Origin: a virus | UHGV virus genome: UHGV-0179803 | DNA: 64,000 nt | Strand: one strand, 5' to 3' | Part shown: one piece after another, positions 26,080 through 62,215 of the stretch | How positions within the stretch are numbered: position 1 is the stretch's first letter | How the letters are laid out: the number at the start of each line of letters is the position of its first letter | Made by a program: the position numbers and the translations under genes | The notes under the pieces: model-generated | The model's database searches: none | Told to the model about the DNA's origin: nothing | The model's input: only the letters and a program-made list of their open reading frames with translations

Positions 26080-26155
26080 TGGCGGCCCCTACTGGACTTG
26101 AACCAGCAACCAAGCGATTATGAGTCACCCGCTCTACCTGTTGAGCTAAAGGGCC
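26080..26155 (-). tRNA. tRNA with anticodon CAU (Met elongator/initiator, or Ile2 if lysidine-modified)
   Basis: Hand-folded cloverleaf: acceptor GGCCCUU/AGGGGCC, D-stem GCUC/GAGC, anticodon loop CUCAUAA, T-arm GGUUCAAGUCC, encoded CCA end. Confidence 0.7.
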
Positions 26156-26156
26156 G

Positions 26157-26232
26157 TGGTGCTGATGGAGGGACTCGAACCCACAACCTTTTGATTACAA
26201 ATCAATTGCACTACCGTTTGTGCTACATCAGC
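26157..26232 (-). tRNA. tRNA-Thr (anticodon UGU), tentative
   Basis: Acceptor GCUGAUG/CAUCAGC, discriminator A, encoded CCA, anticodon loop UUUGUAA, T-loop UUCGAGU. One mismatch each in the anticodon and T stems, so identity needs confirmation. Confidence 0.55.
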
Positions 26233-26248
26233 AAACTGCTTATGATAG

Positions 26249-26323
26249 TGGTATTCGGAGCGGGAGTCGAACCCGCATCTACAGCTTAGGAGGCCGCTAT
26301 TCTATCCGTTGAACTATCCGAAC
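26249..26323 (-). tRNA. tRNA-Arg (anticodon CCU, reads AGG)
   Basis: Acceptor GUUCGGA/UCCGAAU, anticodon loop CUCCUAA, perfect T-arm GCGGG-UUCGACU-CCCGC, encoded CCA. Confidence 0.65.
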
Positions 26324-39931: not shown

Positions 39932-41320
39932 GTGGGAGAACATACTTATGAGATTGGCACGGATGCCGCTCTCGCCGCTGTGTTATGTGGTGAAAACGTC
40001 TATATCAGCGGACCTGGCGGGACCGGGAAGACTCATCTTTTACAAGATATACAGTCTTTACTTGGCGAATCCTGTATGGTTGTTGCCCCAACAGGGGTAG
40101 CCGCGCTTAACGCGGGAGGTGTTACCGCACACAGAGCTTTTGACCTGTCAGCAGGTGTGACTGTCCCAGAAGACTTCACAGAGATTCGTTCTAAAACAGC
40201 AAAACCTCTCAAAAGTAAAGCGCTACGGACTTTAGTCATTGATGAAGTGTCTATGGTCCGTGCGGATAAGTTTGTGGAGATGGATAAGAAACTCCAGCAC
40301 CTCCGTAAAACCAGTGAACCTTTCGGAGGTTTACAGGTGATCATGTTTGGGGATTTCTACCAGGCACAACCTGTTATCTCTACGCAAGAAAGGGAGGACT
40401 ACTACAAATATTGGGATACTGACCTTTGTTTCTATACCCAATCGTGGAAAGATCTTAATCTGAAATGTGTTGCCCTTGTGGAGCAATTCAGGCAAGAGTC
40501 AATCCGGTTTGCCACAATGCTGAACTGCGTTCGTGAAGGTAGGAGAACAGGCGATGTGGTTAAAGAATTAAACTCTCGTTGTTACCACGGGGGGCAGGCC
40601 TCTGATGCTATCATCCTTTGCTCAACCAACAAAAGAGTGGAGGAGATAAACAGAGAGTTCTATGACCGTATTGATGGTGAGGAGAGGATGTATAAAGGGA
40701 CGCTGAAAGGTAAATTCCCTCCCAATCAGCTACCTGTGGAAGATTTGATGTGCCTTAAAGTGGGAATGAAAGTCATGATTGTTGCCAACGACCTTAATCC
40801 TAATCACAAAGTTCCTTGTTATGTTAACGGTTCTCGTGGCACAATATTAAAATTCTATGATGATAAGGTTGACATTGAACTAGATAATGGTACACTTGTG
40901 ACTGTACCTAAAAAGCTATGGGAAAGCTACGAATACAAACCGTCCCTGAAAATGGATTGGAAGGCTCGTAAACAGAAAAGAGTGATTGAGAGAATAACCA
41001 CAGGGTCATTTGAACAGTTGCCTTTGAAGTCTGGATACGCGTACACAATTCACAAAAGCCAGGGTCTTACGTTAGATGCCTATAACTTGGATCTTGGTAA
41101 GAGAGGCGCATTCGCAGCGGGAATGACTTATGTTGCTCTTAGTCGTGCTAAGAAAATTCAGAGCATTACCCTCTTGCGTCCTGTCAGAGAAAGTGATATT
41201 ATTGTAGACCCAAGAGTGGTACAGTTTTACGCTGATACGTTCCCGGGGTTGGATGAAAAAGTAAGAAAAGATCTTGAAGTCAAAGTTAAAAAGGAGGCCG
41301 AGAATGAGTCTACTGGCTAA
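39932..41320 (+). CDS. SF1B DNA helicase (Dda/RecD/Pif1-like)
   Basis: GTG start after AAGGAGG. Walker A ISGPGGTGKTH, Walker B LVIDEVSMV, C-terminal ..YAYTIHKSQGLTLD.. and ..VALSRAKK.. motifs. Confidence 0.8.
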   Translation: MGEHTYEIGTDAALAAVLCGENVYISGPGGTGKTHLLQDIQSLLGESCMVVAPTGVAALNAGGVTAHRAFDLSAGVTVPEDFTEIRSKTAKPLKSKALRTLVIDEVSMVRADKFVEMDKKLQHLRKTSEPFGGLQVIMFGDFYQAQPVISTQEREDYYKYWDTDLCFYTQSWKDLNLKCVALVEQFRQESIRFATMLNCVREGRRTGDVVKELNSRCYHGGQASDAIILCSTNKRVEEINREFYDRIDGEERMYKGTLKGKFPPNQLPVEDLMCLKVGMKVMIVANDLNPNHKVPCYVNGSRGTILKFYDDKVDIELDNGTLVTVPKKLWESYEYKPSLKMDWKARKQKRVIERITTGSFEQLPLKSGYAYTIHKSQGLTLDAYNLDLGKRGAFAAGMTYVALSRAKKIQSITLLRPVRESDIIVDPRVVQFYADTFPGLDEKVRKDLEVKVKKEAENESTG

Positions 41321-41627
41321 TGTGGTTAATTATGTCGCCGATATTGATACATCTGAACCACAAGATGTAACAGTGCACGACTTTACACAACGTCATAAAA
41401 ATCATGATCTTTTGTTGGTGGCAGACAGTGAGGATTATGATGTTTACCATGCTTTTGTGTTCTCTGATACTGTTTTTGAAGTAGGTCAATTCCTGACTGT
41501 TAACTTCGGAGAAGATACAGGTGTGGAAGATATTGTAACTTTCATTATCGAAGGTCTGGATTGTGTTGACGAAGACGGTACTGCGTTTGAATTGATTCTT
41601 CGTGTTGTAGAAGAGCTTGACATATAA
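41304..41627 (+). CDS. Small acidic protein
   Basis: ATG after AAAGGAGG. Highly Asp/Glu-rich. Confidence 0.45.
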   Translation: MSLLANVVNYVADIDTSEPQDVTVHDFTQRHKNHDLLLVADSEDYDVYHAFVFSDTVFEVGQFLTVNFGEDTGVEDIVTFIIEGLDCVDEDGTAFELILRVVEELDI

Positions 41628-41693
41628 TCCCAACTTTGGTAACATCAGAAGCATGAAGGGGAGTAGGTGCTCCCCACTACTAAGGAGACAGTC

Positions 41694-41984
41694 ATGGCTA
41701 ACAAATTACACAGTTTCTATCTAGATTTCACACACGAAGAGTATGTATGTGAATGCCTATGCCGAGTCCAATTGCCAGATTACAATGAACGGGCATCGGA
41801 CATTGATTACTACGGCTTCCGCGAAATCGCAGAGATTGAAGTCTACAAAGATGGTAACAAATTACCGTTCTTACCTAAAGGTTTACGTAATAAAATCAAC
41901 TTTGCAGCACACAAAGCTCTGGAAGAACACTTGCACTCTGCTGATGTGCTCTCTTCGTTTGCTGAAGAAACAGGTGGCTTTTGA
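41694..41984 (+). CDS. Hypothetical protein
   Basis: ATG after AAGGAG (MANKLHSFYLDF..). Confidence 0.45.
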   Translation: MANKLHSFYLDFTHEEYVCECLCRVQLPDYNERASDIDYYGFREIAEIEVYKDGNKLPFLPKGLRNKINFAAHKALEEHLHSADVLSSFAEETGGF

Positions 41985-42178
41985 TGGATGTTAAAATTCT
42001 GAGCTTCAACTTAAGTGTCAGTTATGAGTGTGCTGAACAACAGTTGGCTAGTTACCTAAGACTTGGCTACAAGATCAAAGGTCAATCTCATAACGACAAA
42101 TACCTTATTTATACTTTAGTTGAAGATTCTCCAACACTCGAAGATAAAGAACGAAAACAATGTATGGGAGGCTTCTGA
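41981..42178 (+). CDS. Hypothetical small protein (65 aa)
   Basis: Overlapping stop/start. Confidence 0.4.
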   Translation: MMDVKILSFNLSVSYECAEQQLASYLRLGYKIKGQSHNDKYLIYTLVEDSPTLEDKERKQCMGGF

Positions 42179-42459
42179 TGGCTGCTGATGTAAAAATTAT
42201 CGGGGTCCCGTGTATCGATAGTTGCCTTAATTCTCTGGAAGAGGATTTAAGCAAATATGTTGACGAAGGTTATGCTATCACAGGCCAATGCATAACACCT
42301 CAGGGCAATATCATCTATACACTGGTTAAAAACGTAGACGAAGCTAAGGTTGTTCCTACGCCAACACCAGTGCTTGAAGAGATCGATATTGATTTTGTTC
42401 TGGAAACACTGGAAGCAGACTGGATCAAAAACAAAAGTAGGAGGGTAGCTAAAAAATGA
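42178..42459 (+). CDS. Hypothetical small protein, paralogous to the preceding gene
   Basis: ATG after GGGAGG. Both proteins share the pattern ..KI(L/I)..(V/N)(S/D)..L...L..Y(L/V)..GY.I.GQ....(K/N)..IYTLV... Confidence 0.4.
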   Translation: MAADVKIIGVPCIDSCLNSLEEDLSKYVDEGYAITGQCITPQGNIIYTLVKNVDEAKVVPTPTPVLEEIDIDFVLETLEADWIKNKSRRVAKK

Positions 42460-42929
42460 TTTACGAAAGTGACTATATCTGGAAGATTGGCCCTGCTGCA
42501 CAAGATCTGATTGAAGTGCCACGGGAAACGCTACAAAAAGCTGCTTTTAAGTTCCGTGATCTTGCAGTGATTGGTAACAGGATCCTGAAATATCTTAAAA
42601 ACAAACGTTATGTTGAAGAGAAGTTCTTCGGATTGATCAAAAAAGAAACTACAGTATGGGAACACTACTTGAAAGAGTCTCAGAGCTTCTATGCTGGGCT
42701 GGGCGTAGCTCAGATGGTGATGCATGACGGTTACATCAACCCAACTGAAATGCGTTGCCTACGCTACGCTATAAGCGATTACCCTGGGTTCCTGAAGTAT
42801 CATTTAACTGGCACAGCCTCTGAAAAGATTTATCTGACAGAGGAACATTTCGAACAACTGAATAAAATTTTAAACATAGACTTGACATTAGTCTCAACAG
42901 AGTATACAATTGGGATTCGTGTCGAGTAA
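42456..42929 (+). CDS. Hypothetical protein (157 aa)
   Basis: ORF in operon. Confidence 0.5.
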   Translation: MIYESDYIWKIGPAAQDLIEVPRETLQKAAFKFRDLAVIGNRILKYLKNKRYVEEKFFGLIKKETTVWEHYLKESQSFYAGLGVAQMVMHDGYINPTEMRCLRYAISDYPGFLKYHLTGTASEKIYLTEEHFEQLNKILNIDLTLVSTEYTIGIRVE

Positions 42930-42934
42930 TAACA

Positions 42935-42965
42935 GCCCTGCCCGAAAGGGCGGGGTTTTTGTGTT
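42935..42965 (+). terminator. Rho-independent terminator (CCCTGCCC-GAAA-GGGCGGGG + T-tract)
   Basis: GNRA-loop hairpin followed by TTTTTGTGTTT. Confidence 0.65.
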
Positions 42966-42981
42966 TGGAGGGCTAAATAGT

Positions 42982-43716
42982 ATGAAGCAAGGTGTAGTGT
43001 GGGCTTTATTCAATGGCTCCGATATTGCTGTCAAACCCTGGGCTGATGCAGGGTATTTGTGCTTCTGCTTCAATGCAGAAGGGGCAGATCACGGGAGCTA
43101 TGCAGAGGTAGTAGAAGAACATCCCAACATTAAGTACATAGATTACTGGATTGACCCGTGGTTCCCACAAGAAACCTTGGGGATGTATCCTGCACCAGAT
43201 TTCATCCTGTCGTTTCCACCATGTACCCACTTAGCGGTATCTGGAGCAGCACATTTCAAGAAAAAATTACAAAAAGATCCGTTGATTCAGGTCAATGCTG
43301 TAAAAGATGCACGTATTGCAGAAACATTGGGTAACATGTATAATTGTCCGTGGCATGTGGAGAACCCTGTTGGGGTTATGTCTAATATGTGGCGTAAACC
43401 AGACTACAAGTTCCATCCGTCTGAGTATGGTGGCTATCTGCCGGAAGATGACCAGAACCCGTGGTTCCCTGACCTGATTAAGCCCAGAGATGCTTATCCG
43501 AAGCTAACCTGTGGATGGTTTGGGAATGGTTTTGTTGTCCCTGAGAAACGACCTGTGCCGCAGATTTGTGATGTAAATGGGTATTCTTTCCAACATACCA
43601 AACTGGGAGGAAAATCTCCTCGTACCAAAATGATCAGAAGCCTGACACCTCGTGGTTGGGCATTAGCCGTGTTTGAAGCCAACGAACCCGTTGTAAGGAG
43701 CAAACTCAATGGTTGA
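42982..43716 (+). CDS. Possible DNA (cytosine-5) methyltransferase-like protein; assignment tentative
   Basis: Ordered motif-like segments: LFNGSD (cf. motif I FxGxG), SFPPCTHLAVSG (cf. motif IV PC), WHVENPVG (cf. motif VI ENV). Short for a C5-MTase (244 aa). Confidence 0.3.
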   Translation: MKQGVVWALFNGSDIAVKPWADAGYLCFCFNAEGADHGSYAEVVEEHPNIKYIDYWIDPWFPQETLGMYPAPDFILSFPPCTHLAVSGAAHFKKKLQKDPLIQVNAVKDARIAETLGNMYNCPWHVENPVGVMSNMWRKPDYKFHPSEYGGYLPEDDQNPWFPDLIKPRDAYPKLTCGWFGNGFVVPEKRPVPQICDVNGYSFQHTKLGGKSPRTKMIRSLTPRGWALAVFEANEPVVRSKLNG

Positions 43717-44380
43717 CTGGAGCAAATATTTCACCTACAGTGACGGTAAACTGTTCTGGGCGTATACCGCAAAAGCCGGAAGAGGCAGGGTTATACATCA
43801 CGCAGGCGAGGAGGCCACAGGTACAGACACAGATGGCTATAGGGTGATAAGTGTGTCAGGTGTTGGACGTGTTAGTAGGCATAGAATAATTTGGGAGATG
43901 CATTACGGGGAGATACCTGAAGGCCTTGTTGTGCGGCACAAGAACGACATAGCAGGCGATGATAGGATAGAGAACTTAGTCCTAGGAACACAGGGAGATA
44001 ATGTACGAGACATGATCTACAGTGACAAATTGAACATTAACAATACCTCAGGGTGTCGAGGTGTATGCTACCATAGGGGTGTAAAAAGATGGATTGCATC
44101 TGCTGGAGACATATATTTAGGATGTTTTAAGACAAAAGAGGATGCAATTACATGCAGAAAGTTATGGGAGGAGGGAAAATTCGTCCCGCAAGAATTAGAT
44201 GTTAGAAATACCAGCGGTGTAACAGGGGTGTTCTATGTGCCAAGCTCTGGAAGGTGGAGAGTTAGAGTACAAAGTGGCAAAAAGAGAAAGAGCTATGGTA
44301 GTTACAACACTTTAGAAGAAGCAAGAGCTGTAAGGGACAGAGTGATGAAAGAGATTGAGGAGTCTAAAGATGGGGAATAA
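43709..44380 (+). CDS. Freestanding HNH homing endonuclease with AP2 DNA-binding repeats
   Basis: HNH_3-like core ..RHRIIWEMHYGEIPEGLVVRHKNDIAGDDRIENLVLGTQGDN.. plus AP2-like repeats ..SGCRGVCYHRGVKRWIASAGDIYLGCFKTKEDA.. and ..SGVTGVFYVPSSGRWRVRV..YGSYNTLEEA.. Confidence 0.7.
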   Translation: MVDWSKYFTYSDGKLFWAYTAKAGRGRVIHHAGEEATGTDTDGYRVISVSGVGRVSRHRIIWEMHYGEIPEGLVVRHKNDIAGDDRIENLVLGTQGDNVRDMIYSDKLNINNTSGCRGVCYHRGVKRWIASAGDIYLGCFKTKEDAITCRKLWEEGKFVPQELDVRNTSGVTGVFYVPSSGRWRVRVQSGKKRKSYGSYNTLEEARAVRDRVMKEIEESKDGE

Positions 44381-47300
44381 GTTTATACCCTCTGCGTATA
44401 GTCGTTATGGGGAACCGAACCCAGTTGCAACAAGATACAAAAGCGGAGGCAGTATGGCACGAGACTATCGTGATGAAAAAGAGGTTGAAACTGTAGAGAC
44501 TGTTTTAGAAAATACTAAAATTGTCCCTGTTCCACAACAAAATATCGGACTGACGGCTGCACAATATTTCGGTGTGCGATCAGCATTGTCCCAAGAAGAT
44601 GGTGTGACAGTCGTTGCAACATATTTCCCATATTACAACCGCTACGGCAATCTATCTGGCTTTAAAAAGCGTGATTGGTCTAAGCCAAAAGAGCAGAAAG
44701 GGCACTGGTCTGTAGTAGGCATTGTTAAGGCCAACAGCCAGTTCTTCGGTCAGAAAATGGTTGGTGAAGGCTCAGACCATCGTAAAATCATTGTCTGCGA
44801 AGGTGAAGGCGATGTTATTGCTGCGTGGCAGACTGAATGGATGATGGTCAGGAAAATAGCTACAGACCCGTCATCAAATAAGAAAGCTAAAGCGTGGGCA
44901 CAAAGCGTTCTTGACGGTATTAAAGCCGTGCAGGATGGTGGTTCTGCTAAAGGTTTTCCCACAATTAACGTGGTAGGGCTTAATTGTGGTTGTGCGAATG
45001 CCGTAGACGCTTTTGCCAACAACGAGAAGTTTATTCGTGGCTTTGATGAGATTGTCCTGGCCTTCGATAATGACGCTGCAAATGATGTTGAGAAGCTAAA
45101 ACATGTCACCAAAGGTGTTGAAGCCACTCACAATGTTGCAGCTTTCCTGATGGCTGACAACGTTTTCCATGTGCAGTATCCGAGCGAGGTAAATGATCCA
45201 GAGGGTTACAAAGATATCCGTGATTTGTTCCAGGCTAAAAAGTATGATCAAATTCACGATATGTTCAAAAACCCGATCAAATACGTGCCAGACGCTGTAG
45301 CAGGCCTGAATGATTTCTCAATTGAAGATTTACGTAAAAAATCCACCAATGGTGTTGACATTGGGGCAGAGTTCCCTAAACTCCAGAAAATGTTGAAAGG
45401 TTTGCATAAAGGCACACTGGTCATGTTGACTGGCCCTTCCGGCGGTGGTAAGACTACGGTAGCTAAGAAGATTGAGCACCAGATAGCTAAATACCTGATG
45501 GATCCTACGGTGGCTAAAGCTGATGACTACGACCCCGAAGACAGGTTGTGTATGATTCACCTGGAAGAGGACCCAGAAGAAGCCATCAACTCGCTGTATG
45601 CTAACCAGCTGGGGTATGATATCAAGAATTTCATGGAGGACCCAAGCAAGTATCTGACCGAGCAGGAACACTTTGAAATCCACAAAGCCTGGGTTGATGC
45701 TGATAAAATCAGAGTATTCCGGCACTTCGGTTCAATACCTGTAAACGACCTGATCACCAAGCTGAAACAGATGGTGTGCTTGTATCATTGTCGTTACATC
45801 GTACTGGATCATCTGTCAATGGTTATTTCTGGTTTGAATGTAAAAGATGAGCGTAAAGAGCTGGACCTTGCAATGACGCAGCTTGCAGCATTCTGTAAGC
45901 AATTCAATGTGTTCATTTTGGTGATTGCACACTTACGTCGTACAGAGATTATCCCACCGAAGGATAAAGAAGGTAGGGCTTTACCGTTCTGGTATCCTGT
46001 CCGTAAAGAAAACCTTCGTGGTTGTGTTTCTGCGGACACAGAGTTTTTAACCCCGCAGGGGTGGAAACGCATAGATAACTATGCAGAAGGGGATTTGGTT
46101 GCGCAGCACGATGAAAATGGCGTAATGACTTTCGTAACCCCGAAAGCCTACATCAATCTTCCTTGCGAAGAAATGTGGCATGTTTCCAACACTCACGTTG
46201 TAGACATGTTGTTGAGCGATGAACATCGTGTTGTATATGTGAATGACAGAACGCCAGATGTTTTCCGTACGAAAACCATGTTGGAAGTTGTCTATGACCA
46301 CAACAACAAGCCTTCAGGTATGCGTGGGAAAATACCTGCTACGTTCCTCACAGGGTGCAATGGGACGCTGGGGTTGACTGATGACCAATTACGCCTACAG
46401 GTTGCTGTAAATGCTGATGGGACAGTTCTTACTGAGTCAACAGGAAGAGTGGCTGTGAGAATCAAAAAAGATCGGAAAAAACAACGTCTCGAGATGCTGC
46501 TGGAGAAAACAAACACCACTTATAGGCGTCTTGATTTGCACGGGGTGCACGAAGGACGCACAGAGTACCAATTTAAAGCACCGTGTGGGTATAAAGGTGT
46601 GACTGGGGAATGGTTTAATCTCAAACAACACGAGTTGGAGATTATCTGTGATGAGGTTATGTATTGGGACGGAGATTCTGTGAACAAAAACAGGGTGTCC
46701 ACCATTAACAAACTTGAAGCGGACTTCTTACAGTTTGCCTACAGCGCCTGTGGACATAGAACATCTTTATCCATGAAGGAGAACAACAGTGGCTTTGGCG
46801 GTAGTTACAACTGTAAACCTTTGTACGAGGTAAATGTTTGCAATACTAAGTACATGCATATACGCAAAGGTAGTAATAACAAACCCTCTATTGAACGTGT
46901 ACCTTCCCCAGATGGACGTAAGTATTGCTTTACGTTACCGTCGGGTATGTGGGTGGCGCGCCGCAATGGGCATATTTTTATCACAGGAAATTCGGGGAGT
47001 ATGGAACAACTCAGTTGGGTTGTCATAGGGGTAGAAGCAGAAGAGATGCCTGACAGGTCCCGTGGGCGTGTCCGTTTAGTTAGCCTAAAAAACAGGCCAG
47101 CTAAAACCTTGGGTATCGCTGATGTGCTGATTATGAACCCTGAGACTGGTAAATTCTCCGATGCCAGTGACTGGGTGTGGGATAAAGAGACAGGTTTCTT
47201 CCTGAACAAAGATGGGGATATTGTCTGGAGGCCACAAGATATGTTCGACAATGAAGAACATGTTGTTGTGGAAACTCCTGAAGGTAAGGTTACCGCCGAT

Positions 47301-47411
47301 GTGAAACCTCAACCAAAATCTGTTGACGCAGAAGGGGAAGAAGATGATGGAGTGGATGATCAGAGTGTAATCCAACAGGAGTTCCCTGAGGATGAAGATT
47401 GTCCGTTCTGA
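44370..47411 (+). CDS. Bifunctional DNA primase (TOPRIM) / DnaB-family replicative helicase, intein-containing precursor
   Basis: ATG 44370 eight nt after GAGGAG. TOPRIM motifs IIVCEGEGD and LAFDNDAAND. Helicase Walker A LTGPSGGGKTT and Walker B YIVLDHLSM. Motif H4 is interrupted: ..ENLRG[intein]SGSMEQLSWVV.., cf. DnaB ..LRESGSIEQDADL.. Confidence 0.8.
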   Translation: MGNKFIPSAYSRYGEPNPVATRYKSGGSMARDYRDEKEVETVETVLENTKIVPVPQQNIGLTAAQYFGVRSALSQEDGVTVVATYFPYYNRYGNLSGFKKRDWSKPKEQKGHWSVVGIVKANSQFFGQKMVGEGSDHRKIIVCEGEGDVIAAWQTEWMMVRKIATDPSSNKKAKAWAQSVLDGIKAVQDGGSAKGFPTINVVGLNCGCANAVDAFANNEKFIRGFDEIVLAFDNDAANDVEKLKHVTKGVEATHNVAAFLMADNVFHVQYPSEVNDPEGYKDIRDLFQAKKYDQIHDMFKNPIKYVPDAVAGLNDFSIEDLRKKSTNGVDIGAEFPKLQKMLKGLHKGTLVMLTGPSGGGKTTVAKKIEHQIAKYLMDPTVAKADDYDPEDRLCMIHLEEDPEEAINSLYANQLGYDIKNFMEDPSKYLTEQEHFEIHKAWVDADKIRVFRHFGSIPVNDLITKLKQMVCLYHCRYIVLDHLSMVISGLNVKDERKELDLAMTQLAAFCKQFNVFILVIAHLRRTEIIPPKDKEGRALPFWYPVRKENLRGCVSADTEFLTPQGWKRIDNYAEGDLVAQHDENGVMTFVTPKAYINLPCEEMWHVSNTHVVDMLLSDEHRVVYVNDRTPDVFRTKTMLEVVYDHNNKPSGMRGKIPATFLTGCNGTLGLTDDQLRLQVAVNADGTVLTESTGRVAVRIKKDRKKQRLEMLLEKTNTTYRRLDLHGVHEGRTEYQFKAPCGYKGVTGEWFNLKQHELEIICDEVMYWDGDSVNKNRVSTINKLEADFLQFAYSACGHRTSLSMKENNSGFGGSYNCKPLYEVNVCNTKYMHIRKGSNNKPSIERVPSPDGRKYCFTLPSGMWVARRNGHIFITGNSGSMEQLSWVVIGVEAEEMPDRSRGRVRLVSLKNRPAKTLGIADVLIMNPETGKFSDASDWVWDKETGFFLNKDGDIVWRPQDMFDNEEHVVVETPEGKVTADVKPQPKSVDAEGEEDDGVDDQSVIQQEFPEDEDCPF
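46023..46991 (+). mobile_element. Intein (323 aa) inserted in helicase motif H4 of the primase-helicase
   Basis: In frame. Starts with Cys (CVSADTEF..), ends ..VARRNGHIFITGN followed by Ser. Removing it restores LRG-SGSMEQ, which matches the DnaB consensus. Size suggests an embedded endonuclease domain. Confidence 0.6.
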
Positions 47412-61715: not shown

Positions 61716-61908
61716 GTGATTATCACCGTTACTATAAATTGCCGTAACTATAAATCACCGTGCGTTACTATTTTAATTTCACCATGCAACTATAAATCAC
61801 GGGCCGTTATTATTTATATAGAAAACTATTACTAACCGTGCGTTATTACCTCAATTTGCTTAGGTTACTATTAATCACCGTAAGTAACTATTTTTTAAAT
61901 GATAATCA
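61716..61908. repeat. AT-rich iteron block: ACTATAAAT and TCACCGT(G/A)(C/A)GTTACTATT repeats, flanked by TGATTATCA ... TGATAATCA
   Basis: ACTATAAAT at 61731, 61747, 61789. TCACCGT at 61723, 61755, 61875. AACCGTGCGTTA at 61835. Mutually reverse-complementary 9-mers at 61716-61724 and 61900-61908. Confidence 0.6.
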
Positions 61909-61926
61909 TTCTCAAAATATATTGCG

Positions 61927-62215
61927 TGCATCCCCGGTGATTGTCTCCCGGCCCCTGGTGCCCCGGCTTGATTATATAATAACAGATCCGGCCCCCATGT
62001 CAACAGCTTTTTTAGAAAAATATTAGTTACAACATCCTGGCGCCACCTGGCAGGGCCATCATGACCATGATCCGGTCCGGCGCTTGCGCCCTGGTCCATC
62101 CTCCGCACATTAGTTACAGCATTCCAACGACCGATCCCCGATAGTCTGCAACCTGGCGGGGCCGCCTGGTCCACTGGACCGCCTCCCCTGGTCCGGTGGG
62201 GAGTCCGGCTTGCAA
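61927..62215. repeat. GC-rich island with clustered CCTGG-containing hairpin-like repeats
   Basis: CCTGG occurs about 7 times in one orientation within about 290 bp. Repeated ATTAGTTACA(A/G)CAT at about 62022 and 62110. Near-palindromes such as GGTCCACTGGACC. GC content far above the window average. Confidence 0.55.

Follow-up and report, generated by a model that had tools for sequence, protein, structure and literature searches.

The 64,000-nucleotide stretch of viral DNA analysed here (UHGV virus genome UHGV-0179803, hereafter the window) carries a gene that very probably encodes an active orphan DNA cytosine-C5 methyltransferase (C5-MTase) dependent on S-adenosylmethionine (AdoMet), a member of a compact (~230 amino acids, aa) phage family; the gene forms part of the replication module in an rV5-like myovirus of the Vequintavirinae type. 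The open reading frame (ORF), the family to which its product belongs, the fold, the conservation of the catalytic residues, the purifying selection acting on the gene and its conserved expression signals are all directly supported. Annotations and a partial characterisation of the compact phage C5-MTase family exist already, and the gene of the window matters little on its own, being one more member of it.

Membership in the family was established by several independent searches. The profile phrog_757 (‘DNA methyltransferase’) matches residues 1-242 of the protein at an E-value of 1.8e-81, a HMMER search of 1.84 billion representatives retrieved 1009 clusters of relatives (E<=1e-3; nearly all of them 210-260 aa long), and tblastn located relatives in 1500 phage records, Drexlerviridae and others included. 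The best tblastn matches are ~80% identical genes of rV5-like phages (labelled ‘Dcm-like C5 cytosine methyltransferase’ or ‘DNA cytosine methyltransferase’), and proteins 96-99% identical to the one encoded in the window are present in public assemblies. The median length among 270 fetched relatives is 231 aa, and the window protein (244 aa) is without a large target-recognition domain.

The fold prediction points in the same direction. An AlphaFold2 model built from 36 homologues (mean predicted local distance difference test score, pLDDT, 88.5; predicted template modelling score, pTM, 0.88) has, as predicted, the fold of class I AdoMet-dependent MTases, in the C5-MTase topology. In a Foldseek comparison with the PDB, the best 50 of the 62 matches (E<=1e-3) were all DNMT3-family methyltransferase domains (with E-values down to 1e-5), and a search of the viral structures in BFVD matched phage and viral cytosine methylases. 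The catalytic domains of DNMT3A and DNMT3B are the closest solved structures, at an identity of only 10-16% and a TM-score of ~0.45-0.5; the DNMT3 enzymes, to which the fold of the window protein is nearest, have small recognition regions, and differ from it in being eukaryotic, regulated by partner domains and CpG-specific.

The catalytic residues of a C5-MTase are found at the expected places (Table 1). The motif I-like segment lies in register with motif I of DNMT3B and M.HaeIII in the profile search, the PPC segment aligns with the PC motif of Escherichia coli Dcm (in hhalign), DNMT3B and M.HaeIII, and E127-N128-P129 is placed at the end of a predicted strand. In an alignment of 68 diverse relatives (to which the fractions of 68 given below refer) C81, E127, P129, P146, Y172, W179, P187 and R219 are invariant, and K174, T176, N128 (65/68) and G225 nearly so. 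Furthermore, a comparison of the gene with its rV5 orthologue gave a proportion of nonsynonymous differences (pN) of 0.13 against a proportion of synonymous differences (pS) of 0.79 (synonymous sites being saturated), which indicates strong purifying selection.

These results bear out a first-pass annotation of the same DNA, which had read the gene from its letters as possibly C5-MTase-like, short and divergent, with segments resembling motifs I, IV and VI following each other in the canonical order. The three segments were recovered, in that order, at F10-D14, P79-C81 and E127-P129 of the 244-aa ORF; their resemblance to the motifs goes far beyond chance, as judged from the PHROG 757 match, the 1009 clusters of relatives and the invariance of C81, E127, P129 and R219. 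The protein is indeed short and divergent, as seen from the family median and from the missing PF00145 match, and its enzyme class is upheld by PHROG membership, by a confident fold prediction (in which a methyltransferase fold was obtained) and by an experimentally characterised homologue.

Table 1. Coordinates, in the window, of the methyltransferase gene, its motifs, its expression signals and the CCTGG cluster
Feature	Position	Strand	Basis and remarks
C5-cytosine DNA methyltransferase coding sequence	42982..43716	+	244 aa plus stop; ORF list, sequence, PHROG 757, homologues, fold
Motif I-like AdoMet loop, F10-N-G-S-D14	43009..43023	+	alignments A1/A3; family consensus F-D-x-S/T-G
Motif IV, P79-P80-C81, catalytic cysteine	43216..43224	+	C81 invariant in 68/68 relatives
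Motif VI, E127-N128-P129 (ENP instead of ENV)	43360..43368	+	aligns with E128 of K42 Dcm
Variable loop, residues ~186-207 (PEKRPVPQICDVNGYSFQHTKL)	43537..43602	+	candidate target-recognition element; pairwise and multiple alignments
Sigma-70-type promoter-like site, TTGACA-17-TACAAT	42882..42910	+	consensus scan, 11/12; within the end of the upstream ORF
GC-rich hairpin plus T-run, terminator-like	42934..42967	+	terminator scan; between promoter and ribosome-binding site
Ribosome-binding site, GGAGG	42967..42971	+	10 nt 5' of the ATG; read directly from the sequence
CCTGG cluster, 7 sites, all in + orientation	61954..62191	+	a potential substrate, provided that CCWGG is the target of the enzyme

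The characterised homologue and other known enzymes

Experimental data on the family come from the Dcm of phage K42, in a study that a reference list gives as Wang et al., Cell Rep 2024;43:114857. The corresponding protein of phage KarlJaspers (Bas06) is 52% identical to the window protein by BLASTP (E 1e-84) and collinear with it from end to end (236 columns, 4 gaps), and the genome of K42 is given as 95.4% identical to that of Bas06 (bioRxiv 10.1101/2023.08.16.553469). This preprint describes four independent escapers of retron Ec86, whose mutations delete, truncate or lie just upstream of the 711-bp K42 dcm gene, the expression of which was toxic only in the presence of the retron. It further describes that the msDNA (multicopy single-stranded DNA) of Ec86, purified out of cells expressing K42 Dcm, held high levels of 5-methylcytosine (5mC) by liquid chromatography-mass spectrometry, and that no such 5mC was seen on the msDNA with a C82A/E128A/K175A/K176A mutant (bioRxiv 10.1101/2023.08.16.553469). 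As to specificity, the same preprint takes CCWGG as the K42 Dcm target on the basis of the enzyme's name and of the loss of defence upon mutating CCTGG in the msDNA stem (bioRxiv 10.1101/2023.08.16.553469).

In the pairwise alignment, C81, E127 and K174 of the window protein are the counterparts of C82, E128 and K175 of K42 Dcm. Both proteins belong to the same family and length class (236 vs 244 aa), and share the PPC and ENP motifs, the K-x-T strand and the C-terminal RSLTPRG motif. The acidic residue of motif II (Asp in 63/68 relatives) is represented by Asn31 in the window protein, and Asn is also found in the active K42 enzyme.

The orthologue in the better-known relatives of this virus is ORF231 of rV5 (bas49_0074 in EmilHeitz), which is 79-80% identical, has a like placement 5' of the primase/helicase gene and is preceded by the same promoter and hairpin. 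Unlike this orthologue from rV5 and the BASEL collection, the window protein has an N-terminus shorter by 9 aa, and its motif I loop reads FNGSD instead of FDGSG.

The label ‘Dcm-like’, used in annotations of such genes, recalls the E. coli Dcm/M.EcoRII enzymes, which are specific for CCWGG and methylate its inner cytosine, and with which the compact family would share the chemistry and perhaps the target motif. The E. coli Dcm differs in its length (472 aa), its large recognition domain and its partner gene vsr. A comparison of the family profile with E. coli Dcm (hhalign) could align the PC motif and its surroundings only, over 25 columns and at a probability of 0.3%; tblastn with E. coli Dcm against the window gave no match on the MTase gene, and tblastn with Vsr found no homologue in the window (best E 2.6). 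We consequently rejected membership in the Dcm/M.EcoRII lineage, as the profile alignment is not significant, the tblastn search is negative and the window holds no Vsr.

Proposed mode of action, target motif and rival explanations

The activity of the window protein, its target motif, an anti-restriction role and the triggering of a retron are what we infer from the above. On the assumption that established C5-MTase chemistry applies, the target cytosine would be flipped out of the helix and attacked at C6 by Cys81 (motif IV, PPC), N3 would be protonated by Glu127 (motif VI, ENP), and the methyl group of AdoMet would pass to C5, after which beta-elimination would free the enzyme. With a sigma-70-type promoter of its own and with the primase/helicase and DNA polymerase genes just 3' of it, the gene would be expected to supply an enzyme that modifies the phage DNA during replication. 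The methylation of a short motif may then hide it from host restriction enzymes that are sensitive to 5mC, and many 6-bp sites would be handled by site avoidance instead. Nine 6-bp palindromes (CTGCAG, AAGCTT, GGTACC, TCCGGA, TGGCCA, GCATGC, CGATCG, GAGCTC and ACCGGT) are wholly absent from the 64 kb, among them CTGCAG with an expected count of 25, AAGCTT with 24.5, GGTACC with 14.4 and TCCGGA with 13.3 (CCATGG was seen once), and this points to a strong avoidance of restriction sites. Avoidance cannot purge a genome of short motifs that occur frequently, for which methylation is the usual alternative; the data would fit a sharing of tasks in which 6-bp sites are avoided and CCWGG (125 copies of which are kept) is methylated.

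As regards the target, CCWGG or a related short motif appears to us the likeliest candidate, though one whose chances we would put as balanced at best, the choice being drawn by analogy from the K42 homologue only. The frequency of CCWGG, which over the window as a whole is neither purged nor raised, says nothing on the matter: the 125 sites of the window compare with 108 +/- 11 in dinucleotide shuffles, and the observed/expected ratio of 0.68 under a maximal-order Markov model is comparable to that of other short palindromes (0.68-0.81). A candidate for the recognition element is the loop formed by residues 186-207, which is the most variable segment of the family and comprises the blocks of lowest pLDDT (70-78). 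Among the 270 fetched relatives it occurs in a YSxQH-type form (90 proteins), an NPGW-type form (47) and other forms (133), and it may take part in DNA recognition. If this loop contacts DNA, the enzymes of the window and of K42 may therefore differ in specificity.

Expression of the enzyme could also come at a cost, as by analogy with K42 it could trigger retron-Eco1 (Ec86), which senses the methylation of its msDNA. Because family members are known triggers of this retron, the presence of the gene predicts a narrow restriction protection together with sensitivity to retron-Eco1. Automated annotation will often call such genes hypothetical, since the Pfam and NCBIfam profile libraries miss the family entirely.

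Several observations weigh against the reading of the gene as an active DNA C5-MTase with a protective role. Searches with the single window protein yielded no Pfam match at E<=10 (PF00145 included) and nothing significant in NCBIfam or among PDB sequences, and a Pfam scan of the relatives found PF00145 in only 1/68 (E 0.0067), the family being too divergent for this model; as a consequence of these negative searches, the assignment to the C5-MTase superfamily rests on the fold prediction and the homologue. Profile searches against the PDB stayed below significance, the close alignment (A1) returning C5-MTase matches at E ~0.5 with motifs I-IV in register and the broader one (A3) unrelated Rossmann proteins. 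Within the protein, Asp14 replaces the second glycine of motif I (49/68 relatives have G at position 14 and 3/68 have D), on account of which AdoMet binding in the D14 clade is not guaranteed. The K42/KarlJaspers enzyme, besides coming from another phage family (Drexlerviridae), has G14 where the window protein has Asp, K176 where it has Leu175, and an NPGW-type loop (DNPGWAKT) where residues 186-207 are of the YSxQH type (YSFQHTKL). Moreover, the K42 work was carried out in dcm+ MG1655, and the sections searched of its report do not address the host Dcm (bioRxiv 10.1101/2023.08.16.553469), and our literature search for direct specificity data (methylome or in vitro) on any family member or on rV5-like phages found none. 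Lastly, the Vequintavirinae were exceptionally sensitive to the six restriction-modification systems tested in the BASEL phenotyping (PMC8594841), and any protection would therefore be narrow and motif-specific, as opposed to a global modification.

The first two of the alternatives that we considered concern the catalytic activity itself. The D14 clade might be catalytically impaired by the G14D exchange and kept for a task without catalysis (binding to DNA, for instance, or interfering with a defence system), in agreement with the Asp (Glu in the relative P0006) that stands in place of the Gly of most relatives, and with the change of D11 to N. We consider this very improbable, given that the catalytic and the other invariant residues are all kept, that the gene is under strong purifying selection throughout its length, and that position 14 is not strictly conserved: it is Gly in 32/37 close relatives, varies across the family to T, A, P and D besides G, and is occupied by Ala in DNMT3B (an active enzyme) in the profile alignment. 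Still more improbable is a C5-MTase fold put to another activity, be it the transfer of a carboxymethyl group from carboxy-S-adenosylmethionine (Cx-SAM) or the methylation of an RNA target in the manner of DNMT2. There is a precedent for the former in CmoX (PDB 8yf3), a phage DNA cytosine C5-carboxymethyltransferase of 333 aa that needs Cx-SAM and is usually found beside a phage CmoA (PMC12783734), but the K42 homologue makes 5mC and tblastn with E. coli CmoA found no counterpart in the window (best E 0.73); as for the latter, DNA enzymes outscore RNA enzymes in the structure comparison.

A further alternative keeps the active DNA C5-MTase and assigns it a regulatory main role, in which it would mark the CCTGG cluster (Table 1) and so steer an origin, a promoter or a packaging signal, without restriction protection being its purpose. 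The cluster itself is statistically strong: it comprises 7 CCTGG sites as compared to 1.28 +/- 1.06 in local dinucleotide shuffles (0/2000 of which reach 7), is the densest CCWGG region of the window, and lies, with all sites in one orientation, inside a GC-rich (0.59) non-coding stretch of 281 bp (61930-62210). The equivalent region of rV5 is likewise CCWGG-rich, the K42 homologue is inferred to act at CCTGG, and direct repeats are found immediately upstream of the cluster. However, two of the seven sites fall within a repeated 13-mer, ACCTGGCRGGGCC (at 62045 and 62151), of which the equivalent region of rV5 has two exact and two near copies (at 2737, 2802, 2816 and 3040 of the rV5 locus compared), so that at least a part of the cluster is explained by the reuse of a longer motif, and the other 118 CCWGG sites of the window are scattered across its length. 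In addition, CCWGG would in a dcm+ host be methylated by the host's own enzyme already, unrelated phages (Drexlerviridae and others) that lack the cluster region have an MTase of this family too, and the MTase gene lies 18 kb from the cluster, leaving co-occurrence as the positive evidence. We regard a mainly regulatory role as unlikely.

A connection of the enzyme with the cluster, which the first-pass annotation had put forward as speculation, is plausible but unproven; it hinges wholly on the target motif of the enzyme and is for this reason possible, no more. A bolder version can be conceived, in which a minimal C5-MTase reads DNA through two loops (residues 145-175 and 186-207), loop variants have different specificities, and the rV5-like enzyme might densely methylate the CCTGG-rich control region as an epigenetic switch in addition to evading restriction; to this scenario, too, we give little credence. 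An active orphan DNA C5-MTase that modifies phage DNA during replication remains by far our favoured reading of the gene.

The surroundings of the cluster have features of their own. Immediately upstream of the CCTGG-rich region there are, in an AT-rich stretch, 4-5 iteron-like direct repeats of ~31 nt (of the GTAACTATAAATCACCGTGCGTTACTATTTT type; 61728-61894, with a spacing of 36-42 bp), which may be the sign of an origin or of a regulatory array. Between these repeats and the GC-rich stretch lies a Fur-box-like sequence, AATGATAATCATTCTC (61898-61913); its rV5 equivalent, GATAATGATAATCGTTCTC (2639-2657 of the rV5 locus), agrees at 17/19 positions with the Fur-box consensus GATAATGATAATCATTATC. 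In this region, conservation with rV5 at the DNA level is limited to 61893-61984. A structured RNA at the CCTGG-rich stretch was considered and rejected, as Rfam gave no match and both strands fold worse than shuffled sequences (z +1.4/+1.5).

Expression signals and genomic neighbourhood

Read from the sequence, the gene begins with an ATG at 42982 and ends with a TGA stop at 43714-43716. An alternative TTG start at 42910 would give a longer ORF, but this would cross the conserved hairpin, and the starts of the homologues coincide with the ATG. In rV5 the promoter-like site has exactly the same bases and bears the annotation promoter P231; the ribosome-binding site is conserved with rV5 as well, and rV5 and EmilHeitz both keep promoter and hairpin with hardly a base changed. 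The order of the signals (promoter-like site, terminator-like hairpin, MTase ribosome-binding site; 42882-42967) is unusual yet conserved. As the promoter sits 5' of the hairpin, the transcript would encounter this hairpin in its own 5' leader.

By megablast, parts of the surrounding DNA match genomes of Vequintavirus at 80-88%. The genes follow each other as in rV5 and EmilHeitz, beginning with ORFs of rIIA/rIIB size (an assignment from size and position only) and continuing with a Dda/PIF1-like helicase, small ORFs, the MTase, the primase/helicase and the DNA polymerase (assigned by position). The N6-adenine MTase gene that in rV5 and EmilHeitz lies four genes 5' of the C5-MTase was sought by tblastn with the EmilHeitz protein, which found none in the 64 kb. 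The interval 41274-42929 holds only small ORFs without an assigned function.

Downstream, a homing-endonuclease gene with HNH_3 and AP2 domains (43709-44380, + strand) separates the MTase from the primase/helicase as an insertion that shares 8 nt with the end of the MTase gene, its stop included; EmilHeitz, HeinrichReichert and phages 203/206 have this insertion too, but rV5 does not, and there the MTase abuts the primase/helicase. The primase/helicase ORF (44355-47411) itself contains a probable intein (46023-46991, + strand), a 323-aa insertion relative to EmilHeitz that is placed after a conserved ...ENLRG, starts with Cys (CVSADTEFL) and ends with ...FITGN followed by Ser. Pfam intein models gave no match to this insertion at E<=0.001; the segment matches parts of unrelated PHROGs (PhoH-like and ribonucleotide reductase), as inteins do. 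At a greater distance, three tRNA genes (Met-CAT, Thr-TGT and Arg-CCT) are found on the minus strand at 26080-26323.

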